Shown one piece after another: positions 22,939-34,649 of a stretch of 64,000 nt of DNA. The first letter of the stretch is position 1, and each line of letters starts with the position of its first letter. The notes under the pieces are model-generated. The model made no database searches. It saw nothing but the letters and a program-made list of their open reading frames with translations, and was not told where the DNA came from. Both the position numbers and the translations under genes were made by a program. This DNA is from Thermoanaerobaculia bacterium (GTDB lineage Bacteria; Acidobacteriota; Thermoanaerobaculia; Gp7-AA8), in assembly GCA_036375075.1 (NCBI GenBank), contig DASUSN010000211.1, forward strand, positions 8,075 to 72,074, given 5' to 3'.

Positions 22939-23258
22939 GAACGCGGTCCTCCCTCAATCACGCGGAGCGACTCGCGGAAGCGGCGCTGCTCGCGCCCTCT
23001 CCGCCAGAAGCTCCAGAACATTGCAACGAATCCGATCTGCACGAACCCGACGACGCCGAGGAGGAACAGGATCCCGTTGTTGGCGCCCTTGACCAGCGGA
23101 TCGCCCGGCGCGCCGTAGCAGACCGAGCAGGCGAACGCGTGCGGAGCCAGGATCAGCACGATCGCGAGAACGAGCAATCGAGTCTTCGGGTCTTCGAGTC
23201 TTCGAGAGACCCGATCGAAGACTCGACGACTCGGCGACTCGGCGACTCGGCGACTCAT
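22935..23258 (-). CDS. Small membrane protein with CxxC motif (start ambiguous: ATG 23258 or TTG 23177)
   Basis: Core sequence LLVLAIVLILAPHAFACSVCYGAPGDPLVKGANNGILFLLGVVGFVQIGFVAMFW. ATG 23258 forms an ATGA overlap with the upstream stop, but the first about 27 codons would then be encoded by the hairpin 23179-23256. Confidence 0.45.
   Translation of the reverse strand: MSRRVAESPSRRVFDRVSRRLEDPKTRLLVLAIVLILAPHAFACSVCYGAPGDPLVKGANNGILFLLGVVGFVQIGFVAMFWSFWRRGREQRRFRESLRVIEGGPRS
23179..23256. repeat. Hairpin with tandem-repeat arms, unit GAGTCTTCG
   Basis: CGAGTCTTCGGGTCTTCGAGTCTTCGAGAG pairs with CGATCGAAGACTCGACGACTCGGCGACTCGGCGACTCGGCGACTC. Confidence 0.75.
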
Positions 23259-23455
23259 GGCAGGTCCCTCAGCTTCGCGAACGTCTTCTTCCCGTAGATC
23301 ATCAGCCCCACAGCCATGGCGGCGAAAAGGATGGCCAGCGTGAGGGCGGTGAAGCTGCGCTCCTCGCTGAACTCGCGGATCCCCCACAACGCAACGTACA
23401 GCGACAACGCGATGGTCACGACGACGAAGACGATGTGGAAGGCACGGAGAGACAT
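23255..23455 (-). CDS. Small two-TM membrane protein in the oxidase operon
   Basis: 66 aa: MSLRAFHIVFVVVTIALSLYVALWG...LTLAILFAAMAVGLMIYG. Lies 3 nt after the subunit IV gene. Confidence 0.5.
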   Translation of the reverse strand: MSLRAFHIVFVVVTIALSLYVALWGIREFSEERSFTALTLAILFAAMAVGLMIYGKKTFAKLRDLP

Positions 23456-23458
23456 GGG

Positions 23459-23962
23459 TCAGTGTCCTGAGGTGTTGCCGCTCGGCTCCGTGGGCGTCTT
23501 CGGTGCGGGCTGGCTGGCGTTCAGGTCGTAGCCGGGCCACACCTTCTGGGCGTTGTTGCGCTGGTGCCACGGGCCCCAGAGCATCAGGCCGAAGAAGAAC
23601 ACCGTCAGGACGAGCACGGCGTAAATGAGCTTTCGCTCGGAAAGGAGATGCATGAAGAACGCCGCGACCAGCGATCCCTTGACCGTGGCCACGAGGAGGC
23701 CGAGGGCGATGGCCTGCCAGGTCGGCAGGTGCAACTGGCTGATGGCCACGGTGACGATCGTCAGCACGGCCAGTGCGCCGAAGACCATCAGATAGCGGCG
23801 GATCTCCGCTCGCACGTGCTCGGGATCGTTGTGGTGGGCCGGATCGTGATCGCCCTTGTGCGTCGGATGCTCGGCCTCGGAGAAACGCTCGTGCGCCGGT
23901 CCGCCGGCGTGCTGGTCCGGGTTCCCGGCAGAGTGGTCGTGAGGAATCGCGGTGTCGGTCAT
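23459..23962 (-). CDS. Cytochrome c oxidase subunit IV-like protein with His-rich N-terminal extension
   Basis: 'LLVATVKGSLVAAFFMHL' matches the prokaryotic subunit IV motif. The N-terminal roughly 50 aa carry 11 His. Confidence 0.7.
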   Translation of the reverse strand: MTDTAIPHDHSAGNPDQHAGGPAHERFSEAEHPTHKGDHDPAHHNDPEHVRAEIRRYLMVFGALAVLTIVTVAISQLHLPTWQAIALGLLVATVKGSLVAAFFMHLLSERKLIYAVLVLTVFFFGLMLWGPWHQRNNAQKVWPGYDLNASQPAPKTPTEPSGNTSGH

Positions 23963-23971
23963 CGCAGGCTC

Positions 23972-24625
23972 CTACAGGAGATACAGGATCGGGAACAGGA
24001 AGATCCACACCAGGTCGACGAAGTGCCAGTACAGGCCCGTCACTTCGACACGATTGGTGAACTGGTCGCGCTTCGCGGCGTACCACTTGTCCGCCGTCAG
24101 CAGCAGGTAGGCGAAGACCACCATGCCGCCGACGACGTGCAGGCCGTGCAGGCCGGTCATGACGTAGTAGGTCGCGTAGAAGTTGTGCGTGCTCGGGTAG
24201 AGGTGGTGCGAGAACTTCGTCCCGTACTCGATCGCCTTGATGCCCATGAACACGAAGCCGCAGAGCAGCGTGATCGCGAGGAAGAGCTTGGCCTTCTTCA
24301 GGTTGCCGAGACGGAGGTTGGCCCACGCCAGGATGACCGTGACCGAGGAGGCGATGAGGTTGAACGTGTTCGCCGTGGCCAGCGGGACGTTCAGCACTTC
24401 CCATCCGTGCGGCCAGGTCGGCGCCGACGTACGGAGCAGGATCAGGGTCGAAAAGAGCGCGCCGAAGAGCATGACCTCCGACGCCAGGAAGAGCCAGATC
24501 CCGAGCTTGCCGTTGTACAAGCCCGTGTCCGGGCGGCTGTGCACGGTGTACGGAATCTCGATCTCGTGATGATCGCCGCCATGTGCGGGCCCGTGCCCAT
24601 GCACCGTCAGGGTATGTCCGTCCAT
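23972..24625 (-). CDS. ctaE: Cytochrome c oxidase subunit III
   Basis: '[18 protein letters not shown]', '[15 protein letters not shown]' and '[16 protein letters not shown]'. Confidence 0.9.
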
Positions 24626-24628
24626 CGA

Positions 24629-32943: not shown

Positions 32944-32968
32944 CGATCTCCCTTTACACGCTTGAGCT

Positions 32969-33541
32969 CTACAACTTCAGGAACGAATCGGGGTTGGTCC
33001 AGTCTCCACGCTCGCCGAAGAACTTCACGGACTTGTCGATCAGGATCTGCCCGTCGGCCGGGTCGATGGCGATCTTGGCGCGCTCGAGGGGACGCGGCGC
33101 CGGCCCCTCGAAGTTGATGCCCGTCTTGTAATAGCCGCTGCCGTGGCACGGACACTTGAATTTGTTCTGCGAAGGCAGCCAGTTCGGCGTGCACCCCAGA
33201 TGCGTGCACGTGGTATCGAGCGCGTACATGGTGTCCTCGGTGCGCACGATCCAGATGCCGAACTTCTCCTTCCACCGCTCGTCCACCTCCCCCACCGAAT
33301 AGTCGCTGGGGAAGCCGGCCTTGAACTTCTGGACGGGCTCGAACAGGACGTTCGGGAAGAGATAGCGGACGAAAACGGCGGTGAGACCGCCGACGGCGGC
33401 GGACAGGGCGAGCCAGGCGGTGGTCAGAGCGACCGGAAAGCTGCGCCGGGTAATCTCCCCCTGCTCGCGAATCTCTGCCGCGGCACTGCCCGCGAGGGGC
33501 GTCTTGGGGGCCACCTGATATGGCGTGATTTGCTCAGACAT
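32969..33541 (-). CDS. Rieske 2Fe-2S subunit
   Basis: 'CTHLGCTP' and 'CPCHGSGY'. Start placed at ATG 33541 (MSEQITPY); the ORF-track start at 33625 is a GTG. Confidence 0.85.
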   Translation of the reverse strand: MSEQITPYQVAPKTPLAGSAAAEIREQGEITRRSFPVALTTAWLALSAAVGGLTAVFVRYLFPNVLFEPVQKFKAGFPSDYSVGEVDERWKEKFGIWIVRTEDTMYALDTTCTHLGCTPNWLPSQNKFKCPCHGSGYYKTGINFEGPAPRPLERAKIAIDPADGQILIDKSVKFFGERGDWTNPDSFLKL

Positions 33542-33649
33542 TGACGATTTTTCTGAGACTCTGCGGTGCGCGCTACTATCGGTGAAAAAGGAAAGCGAGT
33601 CAAGCGAATCGGTGATGGGCGACACGCGGCGCCGTGATGCGGCTAACCC

Positions 33650-33718
33650 TTGAGCGATGAACGATGAACGATGACCGATGAACCACCCTCGCTCATCGCT
33701 GAAGGTTCATCGTGCATC
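33650..33718. repeat. Imperfect hairpin with tandem-repeat arm, unit GATGAAC (7 nt)
   Basis: GAGCGATGAACGATGAACGATGACCGATGAACC ... GGTTCATCGTGCATC. Overlaps the stop codon of the HEAT-protein gene. Confidence 0.6.
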
Positions 33719-34618
33719 CTTCGAGAGAGCATCCTTGGCCGCCGACCGCACCTGCAGCGAGGGGTCCCCTTGCGCGAGCGCTCCGAGGATGCCCGCCGCC
33801 TCCTCGGGCGCGACCTTTTTCAGCGCCGGGATCGCCGCGAGGATGGTCTGCTCTTTCTGCTCGGGCCGCATGCCTTCGACCCGATCCAGCCGGGACCGGT
33901 CGAGCATCTCCCGGAGCACGCCGACGGCGCGCGTGTCCCCCAGCCGGGCCAGGGCGATGGCGGCGTTGAAGCGCACGTCCGCGATCGGATCGGCCAGCGC
34001 GCCGGCGAGAGGCTCGACGGCGCGGCGGTCGCCGATCTCCCCCAGCGCGTACGCCGCCGCCTTCCGCACGTCCCGCTCGTCGGTCGAAAACGACTTCAGC
34101 AGCGGCGGCACGGCGGCCGGGTCGCGGAGACGCCCCAGCGCCAGCGCGGCGTAGATCCGCGCCTCCTGGGTCGGGTCGCCGAGAGCCTCGATGAGAAGCG
34201 GGGTCGCGCGGCGGTCGCCGAGATTGCCGAGGACCATGCTCAGGTACTGGCGGATGCGCGGGTCGTCGGTCTTCGCGTCGGTGTAGACCTTGGCGATGTC
34301 GTTGACCAGGTTCGGGTACTTCTTCGCCTCGCCGACGTTGATGAGCTGCGAGAGCTGATACGCCGCCTGCCAGCGCTCGCGGCGCCCGCCGGACTTCACC
34401 TCGTTCAGGTAGTCGGGGATGGTCTGCTCGTCCGAGGCGAGTTTGCCGAAGAGGAAGAAGATCCCCACCGCCACGGCGACGATGCCGAGGGGGAAGATGA
34501 CGAACTGGAAAAGGATGGTGCGGGAGGATTCCTTCGGCACGTCCAGCGACGCGCCGGCATCGCCGGATTGAGGATTGAGGATTGAGGATTGAGGATGCTG
34601 CGGGTCGGGGCTCTTCAA
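33707..34618 (-). CDS. Membrane-anchored HEAT-repeat (PBS-lyase HEAT-like) protein
   Basis: TM 'ILFQFVIFPLGIVAVAVGIFFLF'. Repeats include 'DVRKAAAYALGEIGDRRAVEPLAGAL' and 'DVRFNAAIALARLGDTRAVGVL'. The annotated N-terminus is encoded by hairpin 34565-34649, so the true start is probably further in. Confidence 0.7.
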   Translation of the reverse strand: MKSPDPQHPQSSILNPQSGDAGASLDVPKESSRTILFQFVIFPLGIVAVAVGIFFLFGKLASDEQTIPDYLNEVKSGGRRERWQAAYQLSQLINVGEAKKYPNLVNDIAKVYTDAKTDDPRIRQYLSMVLGNLGDRRATPLLIEALGDPTQEARIYAALALGRLRDPAAVPPLLKSFSTDERDVRKAAAYALGEIGDRRAVEPLAGALADPIADVRFNAAIALARLGDTRAVGVLREMLDRSRLDRVEGMRPEQKEQTILAAIPALKKVAPEEAAGILGALAQGDPSLQVRSAAKDALSKDAR

Positions 34619-34649
34619 TCCTCAATCCTCAATTCTCAATCCTCAATCC
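34565..34649. repeat. Hairpin with tandem-repeat arms, unit GGATTGA (7 nt)
   Basis: GGATTGAGGATTGAGGATTGAGGATTGAGGATG ... CTTCAATCCTCAATCCTCAATTCTCAATCCTCAATCC. Confidence 0.9.

Follow-up and report, generated by a model that had tools for sequence, protein, structure and literature searches.

A run of co-directional respiratory genes in a soil acidobacterium is interrupted by five hairpins whose arms are themselves built from a short unit repeated in tandem, and the question that this locus raises is why the hairpins are there. The genes lie on the minus strand of a 64,000-nt stretch of DNA, hereafter the window, to whose full length all coordinates refer; the source genome, denoted G000, is a draft of 8.26 Mb in 239 contigs. 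A preliminary description of the window had read the hairpins as structures that punctuate the respiratory genes at module boundaries. Our analysis suggests another answer: the five hairpins are likely to belong to a class of non-coding palindromic repeats with tandem arms that is dispersed across the genome, and not to be module punctuation, and their placement in the respiratory cluster probably reflects tolerance of insertion, not functional modules. The original observation of five hairpins is real but mis-scoped, and in that sense partly confirmed, and the interpretation attached to it is supported in part.

Architecture and folding of the five hairpins

All five hairpins are borne out by the sequence, by the arrays found with Tandem Repeats Finder (TRF) and by the pairing of their arms, which are 76-94% complementary (Table 1). 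Folded as the transcribed (minus) strand RNA they reach -38 to -59.7 kcal/mol, with z scores of -3.7 to -7.9 and none of 200 shuffles folding equally well, and our array-pair detector found no inverted array pair in 40 third-order Markov surrogates of the window. A unit of 7-9 nt repeated in each arm had been described, and this holds for four of the hairpins; in Hairpin 2, a clean GATGAAC array is present on one arm only, the partner arm being degenerate, and the unit of Hairpin 5, previously given as 9 nt, is 8 nt by TRF. As had been noted before, inspection of the sequence finds no U-tract 3' of any of the five, and none of them appears in a terminator scan of the window. At the gathering score, Rfam returns no match for the hairpins, the sub-threshold matches being only to generic miRNA-precursor hairpins.

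Hairpin 1 is placed between the ferredoxin stop (34655) and the HEAT-repeat gene, and Hairpin 2 takes in the HEAT stop (33707-33709), with the Rieske promoter downstream of the element. In Hairpin 3, the TAG stop of cyt b' (30922-30924) forms the first triplet of the first unit, and the GTG start of the octahaem cytochrome c gene (30805) follows 6 nt past the stem. Hairpin 4 lies between the stop of a lipoprotein gene (26639) and the ctaD Shine-Dalgarno sequence GGAGGAGG with its GTG start (26530), and Hairpin 5 begins inside the TGA stop of a gene for a 66-aa protein. Beyond the five, TRF and arm pairing identify four more tandem-arm hairpins in the window.

A genome-wide class of tandem-arm palindromes

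A census of inverted array pairs in the G000 draft finds 513 elements in 61 canonical units under strict settings and 642 under relaxed settings, a count that still misses degenerate copies. There are about 20 main unit families, with units of 7-10 nt; period 7 is the commonest (174 of the 513 elements), periods 8-10 together being as frequent. Pairing is the rule at these periods, where 998 of 1493 arrays (67%) are paired, versus 2 of 336 at periods 6 and 12. The median element has 4.2 units per arm and spans 93 nt, with an arm length that is narrow across all families, and with 600 or more copies of this size, the class accounts for a considerable part of the intergenic DNA in G000. The units of the five hairpins, which had been taken for locus-specific, all belong to dispersed families, with 8 loci for GGATTGA, 15 for GATGAAC, 3 for AGCTCTT, about 50 for ATAGGACNN and about 52 for GAGTCNNC under the strict settings.

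Within families of at least five members, the polarity is uniform in 460 of 460 elements, one strand of the unit always occupying the 5' arm, and the mirror arrangement is never seen. Moreover, the order of variant units is common to unrelated loci and to other species: the GGATTGA family reads GGATTGA-GGATTGA-GAATTGA-GGATTGA-GGATTGA, with GAATTGA as its third unit, the GATGAAC family GAACGAT-GAACGCG-GAACGAT..., with GAACGCG as its second, and the AGCTCTT family AGCTCTT-AGGTNTT-AGCTCTT..., with AGGTNTT as its second. Since the polarity is uniform and the order of variant units is shared, the copies of a family descend from master elements and are not independent microsatellites. Each unit consists of a conserved core and a variable spacer of 1-3 nt (e.g. 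ATAGGAC+NN), and in 14 of the 16 largest families the flanks and loops are unconserved.

One group of 57 copies, ACAGAGGC/ACACAGAG, is composite, with only ~3 units per arm, conserved outer stems (CCTCCGTCCCA ... TGGGACGGAGG) and conserved loop ends (GTGAATAC ... GTATTCAC); judged by this sequence organisation, it may be a true element of the miniature inverted-repeat transposable element (MITE) kind.

Genomic placement and strand symmetry

Genes across G000 were called with a simple caller of our own (6405 genes, 89.6% coding), which reproduced the respiratory cluster correctly. The strict census places 275 elements in co-directional gaps, 97 in convergent gaps, 70 in divergent gaps and 67 inside called genes; 43 intragenic elements (about 8% of the census) have a same-frame coding signal on both sides. 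The median distance from the stop codon to the element is 4 nt, and a further 24-27 nt, by approximate start codons, separate the element from the next start. In large co-directional gaps the element lies at relative position 0.13 from the stop, and convergent gaps are filled by the hairpin down to a median residual of 9 nt. In divergent gaps, element position is uniform and density is 0.34 per kb, versus 0.64-0.68 per kb in the other gap types.

Starting just past stops and filling convergent gaps are the positions of terminators or stabilisers, and together with the very stable RNA folds they would suit selected intercistronic RNA hairpins, either protecting upstream mRNA segments from 3' exonucleases or serving as points of processing or attenuation through which the ratios of bc-complex, cytochrome c and oxidase subunits are set. 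Hairpins of the repetitive extragenic palindromic (REP) type are indeed thought to stabilise mRNA (PMC3733652). However, the strand symmetry of the elements speaks against selection at the RNA level. Single mismatches in the 275 co-directional elements, read on the sense strand, comprise 121 of GU type and 132 of AC type (p = 0.53), and the sense hairpin is the more stable one in 133 elements, against 142 for the antisense, so that neither a G-U excess nor a gain in sense-strand stability is seen. The palindromy is thus strand-symmetric, as expected for a DNA-level process. The 70 elements in divergent gaps and the roughly 43 within open reading frames (ORFs) point the same way, as does the lack of a U-tract on the five hairpins, whereas an ordinary terminator with a T tract closes the operon directly after SCO1, the genome thus also using canonical terminators. 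Among the stem mismatches of the co-directional elements, G opposite G (88) and C opposite C (49) differ in number on the sense strand, all other mismatch classes being symmetric.

The respiratory cluster does not stand out from the genome in this respect. It has three census hits (five by eye) in a 17-gene run, other long runs have 4-5, and the genome mean is 0.098 per internal junction; the idea that the cluster is enriched in elements was therefore rejected, its count not being significant against other long gene runs in G000.

Orthologous junctions in the genus

All 35 genomes of the genus contain the respiratory cluster, and we read its junctions in 20 congeners and built a tree from seven cluster proteins. 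Tandem-arm hairpins occupy the fdx/HEAT junction in 12 of 19 genomes, HEAT/Rieske in 6 of 19, Rieske/cytb in 8 of 21, cytb2/mhc in 13-14 of 21, cup/ctaD in 10 of 21 (with other palindromes in 3 more) and small/CxxC in 9 of 20 (with a REP in 1 more). Single occupied cases among 21 genomes are found at cytb/cytb2 (with 2 other palindromes), mhc/cup and ctaE/IV, and ctaD/ctaE, IV/small and CxxC/ctaC are occupied in none. In total, 9 of the 12 junctions have a tandem-arm hairpin in one or more of the 21 genomes, some of these junctions lying inside the modules of the preliminary description: congeners carry elements also at Rieske/cytb, cytb/cytb2, ctaE/IV and mhc/cup, and, the cluster being unenriched, a special tie to module boundaries is not upheld.

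Orthologous sites are empty or hold an element of the same, a related or an unrelated family, with at least 9 different units at cytb2/mhc alone. Clean empty junctions occur in seven or more congeners (e.g. TGAtcgcATG), and the occupied ones vary by species, those within modules included, neither of which would be expected of selected RNA hairpins. Comparison of orthologous gaps, which had been proposed as a check, thus confirms that unit identity varies and that units change in place, but placement is not conserved and units differ between species.

The in-place changes occur in concert on both arms of orthologous elements. At cytb2/mhc, G000, G013 and G023 have a homologous loop, with AGCTCTT units in the orthologous elements of G000 and G013 and AGCTCGC/AGCTGGC in G023. 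G007 and G019 differ by GTTGCTG versus GTTGCCC units, and G006 and G023 by AGGCTCAA versus AGTCTCAA. At cup/ctaD, the loop AAGCTCAG is common to G000, G013 and G008; the first two of these have ATAGGAC units, G008 mixes ATAGGAC with ATGGGAC, and in G050 every unit is ATGGGAC. The slippage or template switching that had been offered earlier as one possible origin fits such changes (AGCTCTT vs AGCTCGC, GTTGCTG vs GTTGCCC, ATAGGAC vs ATGGGAC).

Counted genome-wide, triple-unit hits of ATAGGAC and ATGGGAC number 425 and 0 in G000, 150 and 266 in G050, 94 and 0 in G013, 36 and 0 in G048, and 37 and 288 in G008. G050 and G008 are not sisters in the cluster-protein tree, family abundance being lineage-specific and off the species tree. 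Orthologous elements thus mirror the mix of families in their own genome, for which either dispersed copies must exchange sequence or a new copy must overwrite the old one. The same tandem-arm architecture is carried by the near-complete assemblies G003, G048 and G049 (3-5 contigs) and recurs in the ctaD neighbourhoods of other Acidobacteriota and of Gemmatimonadales. By its nearest ctaD relatives, the source organism itself falls in the Acidobacteriota, close to Thermoanaerobaculia and Vicinamibacteria.

Two observations concern the internal make-up of junction elements. The cytb2/mhc junction of G008 (L121) holds a hybrid element, with an ATAGGAC/ATGGGAC array as left arm and a CGACAAC array from another family as right arm, which suggests that a single arm can be replaced, or that a solo array can be added beside an older hairpin. 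Three loops hold 10-13-nt strings of the ancestral junction, namely those of cytb2/mhc in G000 (about 30860-30880), fdx/HEAT in G019 and small/CxxC in G007; an example is GCTGAGACATGAA, which includes the old ATG, and a similar string recurs past the 3' arm.

Several points weigh against regarding the elements as dispersed repeats that are merely tolerated. At four junctions of the cluster, 45-67% of congeners carry an element, far more than the rate of roughly 10% per junction in G000, and they do so despite differing units, as if the hairpin were kept while its sequence was swapped; this high occupancy could reflect selection for the hairpin, beyond shared ancestry and permissiveness. Furthermore, no mobilising gene for tandem-arm elements was found in G000, and neither target-site duplications nor conserved termini were seen, so that it is by their distribution alone that the elements can be called mobile. 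The distances to start codons, finally, are approximate, as stated above. Taking these points together with the strand symmetry, the empty junctions and the lack of enrichment, we consider selected intercistronic RNA hairpins an unlikely explanation, and dispersed repeats tolerated at these sites remain the probable one.

Hairpins that touch reading frames

All five hairpins had been described as intergenic, which is too simple for two of them; Hairpin 5 lies in the open frame of the CxxC gene, and the right arm of Hairpin 1 lies in the HEAT frame. The CxxC frame is opened by an ATG or GTG overlapping the TGA of the 66-aa gene (ATGA/GTGA) in 17 genomes (ATG at 23258-23256 in the window), and in empty junctions this overlapping codon is the sole CxxC start. 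The frame is free of stops in all 10 occupied junctions, the +1 frame being open in only 4 of the 10, and the overlapping start stays in frame across 9 of the 10 inserts, for which the chance is about 0.01, taking 6-7 independent inserts. Hairpin 5 is most likely translated, as the predicted tail MSRRVAESPSRRVFDRVSRRLEDPKTR of the CxxC protein.

The HEAT gene presents a similar case at its start. The ancestral start ATG-ACC-GAC (MTD) is absent in the four genomes that bear GGATTGA units at this junction (G000, G012, G003 and G023), and in all four a TTG in the last left-arm GGATTGA unit (34618 in the window), preceded by GAGGA, is in the HEAT frame. From this TTG to the conserved DVPKES there are 78, 78, 75 and 66 nt, respectively, without stops. 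It is the only start candidate in G012; in G000, the gene could instead start at a GTG at 34540. It is thus possible that the right arm of Hairpin 1 is translated as part of the HEAT protein. The predicted arm-encoded peptides would be MSRRVAESPSRRVFDR in the CxxC protein and ...DPQHPQSSILNPQS in the HEAT protein.

Organisation of the respiratory cluster

Genes of the cluster were taken from the ORF list and from our gene caller, and their names were checked with Pfam (Table 1). The gene labels given previously are supported by Pfam with the exception of 'cupredoxin', since the gene at 26639-27466 matches only a CarboxypepD_reg-like beta-sandwich, at its C-terminus, and has a lipoprotein-type N-terminus. 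In G000, genes within a block overlap or are separated by no more than 25 nt according to the gene caller, as had been described. The whole cluster, on the other hand, is not a single operon. A promoter scan finds a promoter-like sequence upstream of Rieske, and the motif, TTGACAnnGTTTCCGTTTTCACCGATAGT, is kept in the HEAT/Rieske gaps of at least 12 congeners. Because this conserved motif lies at 33575-33603, the Rieske start is placed at the ATG at 33514, the long-ORF start at 33625 being wrong, and because the promoter is conserved in the genus, the HEAT/Rieske gap is read as a transcription-unit boundary, with ferredoxin-HEAT and Rieske...SCO1 as separate transcription units.

The genes for the 66-aa membrane protein and the CxxC protein (window 22935-23455) overlap by ATGA/GTGA in other genomes as well, but form a single fused ORF in G047 and G018 (L127, L133); the two proteins probably act together as small oxidase-associated subunits. 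Elsewhere in the window, a 1204-aa ORF (15779-19393, plus strand) converges on the end of the respiratory cluster, and a 43-nt tandem repeat (10777-11050; 6.4 copies with 81% match, or 2.1 copies of 128 nt in another reading) is of a kind unlike the hairpin elements.

Table 1 Genes, signals and tandem-arm hairpins of the window, the respiratory genes in transcription order
Feature	Position	Strand	Details
Co-directional respiratory genes	19763..35128	(-)	
4Fe-4S ferredoxin	34655-35128	(-)	
HEAT-repeat protein	33707-34540/34618	(-)	
Rieske	32969-33514	(-)	
cyt b N-terminal part	32161-32943	(-)	
cyt b C-terminal part (cyt b')	30922-32145	(-)	
Octahaem cytochrome c	27485-30805	(-)	Eight CxxCH motifs
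Lipoprotein with CarboxypepD_reg-like domain	26639-27466	(-)	
ctaD	24629-26530	(-)	
ctaE	23972-24625	(-)	
Subunit IV	23459-23962	(-)	
66-aa protein	23255-23455	(-)	
CxxC protein	22935-23258	(-)	
ctaC	22171-22938	(-)	
ctaA	21191-22174	(-)	
ctaB	20313-21194	(-)	
SCO1	19763-20323	(-)	
Promoter-like TTGACT-17-GATAGT (also given as TTGACA-17-GATAGT)	33575..33603	(-)	Upstream of Rieske; promoter scan
Intrinsic-terminator-like hairpin with T tract	19723..19746	(-)	Directly after SCO1
Hairpin 1	34562..34652	(-)	(GGATTGA)5 / (TCAATCC)5; 35-nt arms, 94% complementary; -59.7 kcal/mol, z -7.9
Hairpin 1 TRF arrays	34565-34596 and 34615-34649		Period 7, GGATTGA; 4.6 and 5.0 copies
Hairpin 2	33649..33725	(-)	GATGAAC family; 33-nt arms, 76% complementary; -38 kcal/mol, z -4.2
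Hairpin 2 TRF array	33651-33683		Period 7, GATGAAC; 4.7 copies
Hairpin 3	30812..30925	(-)	(AGCTCTT)4 arms, loop ~50 nt; 39-nt arms, 87% complementary; -59.7 kcal/mol, z -5.7
Hairpin 3 TRF arrays	30812-30841 and 30897-30925		Period 7, AGCTCTT; 4.3 and 4.1 copies
Hairpin 4	26544..26637	(-)	(ATAGGACNN) arms; -50.9 kcal/mol, z -5.6
Hairpin 4 TRF arrays	26544-26595 and 26603-26637		Period 9, ATAGGACCT; 5.8 and 3.9 copies
Hairpin 5	23179..23256	(-)	8-nt units CGAGTCTT / CGAGTCGC; 27-nt arms, 85% complementary; -44.5 kcal/mol, z -3.7
Hairpin 5 TRF arrays	23178-23206 and 23220-23256		Period 8; 3.6 and 4.6 copies
Further tandem-arm hairpin	13567..13693	(.)	GTTCCTCGG family, largest in genome (81 loci)
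Further tandem-arm hairpin	49270..49406	(.)	GAGTCTTC/GAGTCGTC family (that of Hairpin 5); unique 15-nt outer stem; 50-nt arms, 92%
Further tandem-arm hairpin	53612..53710	(.)	Degenerate GAGTCNNC-family member; arms 74%
Further tandem-arm hairpin	58693..58781	(.)	Second GTTCCTCGG-family copy in window

Origin and maintenance of the elements

As dispersed tandem-arm palindromes, family copies arise by copying from master elements, in the manner of REPs or MITEs, and are found at sites where a compact hairpin does little harm: after stops, in convergent gaps, more rarely in the promoter-rich divergent gaps and occasionally in frame in disordered protein tails. Replication slippage could then alter the copy number in place, and arm-to-arm template switching or short-patch conversion would keep the arms complementary and allow a unit variant to sweep both. 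Earlier work has shown that inverted repeats can arise, become homogenised and grow longer by template switching (PMC8794818; PMC13100816). Conversion from other copies would let an orthologous element adopt the unit variant dominant in its genome. Where a hairpin reaches from the upstream stop almost to the downstream start, the ribosome that terminates at the stop would melt it, which would preserve translational coupling and could thereby explain why inserts survive in tightly coupled junctions, and effects on mRNA decay or termination would be a by-product.

Four more specific ideas about the mechanism were considered and set aside. A REP-associated tyrosine transposase (RAYT) as mobiliser was rejected, neither of the two PF01797 (Y1_Tnp) genes in G000 being flanked by tandem-arm hairpins. 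The idea that unit cores are restriction or nicking sites that seed the repeats was dropped, as the cores are not avoided outside arrays (observed/expected about 1); matches to type IIS sites are expected by chance in about half of all units. Fold-back or target duplication is unsupported genome-wide, with loop-flank sharing equal to that of permuted controls, despite the three loops with ancestral-junction strings. Insertion of new elements into old hairpins finds no support as a general route of unit swapping: although long loops exceed control intergenic DNA in structure (p = 1.5e-10), only 9 gaps hold at least two elements versus 29 expected.

One could also speculate that a dedicated machinery copies and rewrites tandem-arm palindromes family by family. 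The argument for it is that each family has one polarity and arms of about four units, that orthologues take the dominant variant of their genome, and that the same architecture is found in Acidobacteriota, Gemmatimonadota, Xanthomonas and cyanobacteria; we nonetheless regard such a machinery as rather unlikely. If it existed, the hairpins would be 'structurally silent', keeping coupling intact by drawing the downstream start close to the upstream stop, and they could donate start codons and N-terminal peptides, for example by the GAGGA-preceded TTG in (GGATTGA)n.

A purely local origin, in which each hairpin grew from a small hairpin by slippage and template switching and shared units reflect a convergent mutational preference, would account for the concerted in-place unit change between sister species, for copy numbers that differ between arms and loci, and for the ancestral-junction strings retained in three loops, and stems can indeed be built by template switching (PMC8794818). 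Independent growth does not, however, predict the same units at up to 81 unrelated loci, one polarity throughout and a shared variant order, nor does it sit well with the hundreds of ATGGGAC copies in G050 and G008 and their complete lack in G000, G013 and G048, and a purely local origin is therefore very unlikely. No better are the prospects of a third proposal, that the arms are arrays of binding sites, core plus spacer forming the site of a DNA- or RNA-binding protein and the elements serving as multi-site platforms in nucleoid, regulatory or translational control. The proposal draws on the conserved core and variable spacer of each unit, on the narrow arm length of about 4 units in all families and on similar proposals for TAACTGA heptamer repeats (PMC4679880), but about 20 unrelated families would need as many proteins, units are freely swapped at orthologous sites, core words are neither enriched nor avoided outside arrays, and no candidate protein was identified. 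An artefact of short-read metagenome assembly at repeats, which are hard to assemble and which G000 carries as a draft of many contigs, can be dismissed with near certainty, because the same architecture stands at orthologous junctions in 20 independent assemblies, some of 3-5 contigs, reading frames stay open through the inserts, and the elements are internal to long contigs and not at their ends.

For dispersed tandem-arm palindromes, the comparison of the cluster across genomes exposes their dynamics, with fixed polarity, master copies, replacement at orthologous sites, concerted change of both arms and entry into reading frames, and such elements could offer a tractable model for bacterial template switching and palindrome maintenance. 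For annotation, start codons and 'intergenic' labels beside tandem-arm hairpins are unreliable, and operon-internal hairpins should not be taken as regulatory punctuation without transcript data.

Comparison with known systems

Tandem-arm palindromes form an understudied class found in several phyla, and the literature that we searched describes only single units, in Xanthomonas and cyanobacteria, without a mechanism. Among better-known structures, intrinsic terminators resemble them in being stable, GC-containing stem-loops just past stops, often between convergent genes, but the elements described here lack a U-tract, have far longer stems of 25-50 bp and are present in coupled operon gaps and in divergent gaps. 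Rickettsia palindromic elements (RPE) are 100-150 nt long, conserved in sequence and located in frame within genes (PMC3733652); they are similar in that in-frame palindromes are tolerated, here in the CxxC tail, possibly at the HEAT N-terminus and in about 43 other ORFs, and differ in that arms built of tandem arrays, and a different phylum, are involved here. Beggiatoaceae have tandem heptamers as well, the TAACTGA repeats, but these are not regularly paired (PMC4679880). With MITEs there is no match in the main families, loops and flanks being unconserved in 14 of the 16 largest and loop-flank direct repeats not exceeding permuted controls.

REPs and REPINs are short, high-copy, mostly extragenic palindromes mobilised by RAYT transposases (PMC3116915; PMC3733652). 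The tandem-arm elements share with them high copy number, mainly extragenic location, several families, lineage-specific abundance, occasional in-frame copies and proposed side-effects on mRNA. REPs are, however, imperfect palindromes of 20-40 nt, and no GTAG/CGTC tetranucleotide is found at the ends of the elements here, whose arms are internally periodic and whose loops are unconserved. Of the two PF01797 genes, one has no flanking inverted repeats and the other has GC-rich 47-nt REPs of another type on its flanks. Alongside the tandem-arm hairpins, the window contains ordinary GC-rich palindromes of REP type, some of them headed by GTAGGG (51273-51360, of GTAG type; 40407-40474; 54881-54995), and on contig C140 of G000 (L137:1-510) a cluster of 47-nt GCCGGC-rich REPs lies beside a RAYT-like Y1 transposase gene.

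Cyanobacteria reportedly contain short tandemly repeated repetitive (STRR) heptanucleotide sequences, as described by Mazel et al. in 1990. Several STRR families occur per genome, in intergenic positions and also within operons (pecE-pecF), and to our knowledge neither a function nor a generating mechanism has been assigned to them. The elements of G000 likewise comprise tandem heptanucleotides in several non-coding families, and can be considered the same kind of element, though not the same family, as units and taxon differ and pairing is regular here. Of the GGGGA(C/T)T arrays of Nostoc, only a few are paired as inverted repeats (PMC4692102).

GGGAATC tandem arrays form 70-75 inverted pairs per genome in Xanthomonas campestris and X. 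axonopodis, about 90% of them intergenic, mostly between co-directional genes and at a mean of 28 nt from the end of the upstream ORF (Rehm et al. 2015, PMC4692102). The architecture is therefore not new, as the preliminary description had supposed, inverted heptamer arrays being known from Xanthomonas (PMC4692102) and heptamer arrays from cyanobacteria (STRR). The likeness is close in form, since in both cases convergent tandem arrays of one short unit lie close together, intergenic and nearer to the end of the upstream ORF. The Xanthomonas unit is a single G-rich one, studied for G-quadruplex formation, whereas the units here fall into about 20 unrelated families of 7-10 nt that are mostly not G-rich, and no run of three G is present in GGATTGA, GATGAAC, AGCTCTT, ATAGGACNN or GAGTCNNC. 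What further sets the present elements apart from those of Xanthomonas is that inverted pairing is the rule, that units are swapped among congeners and that some copies are in frame.

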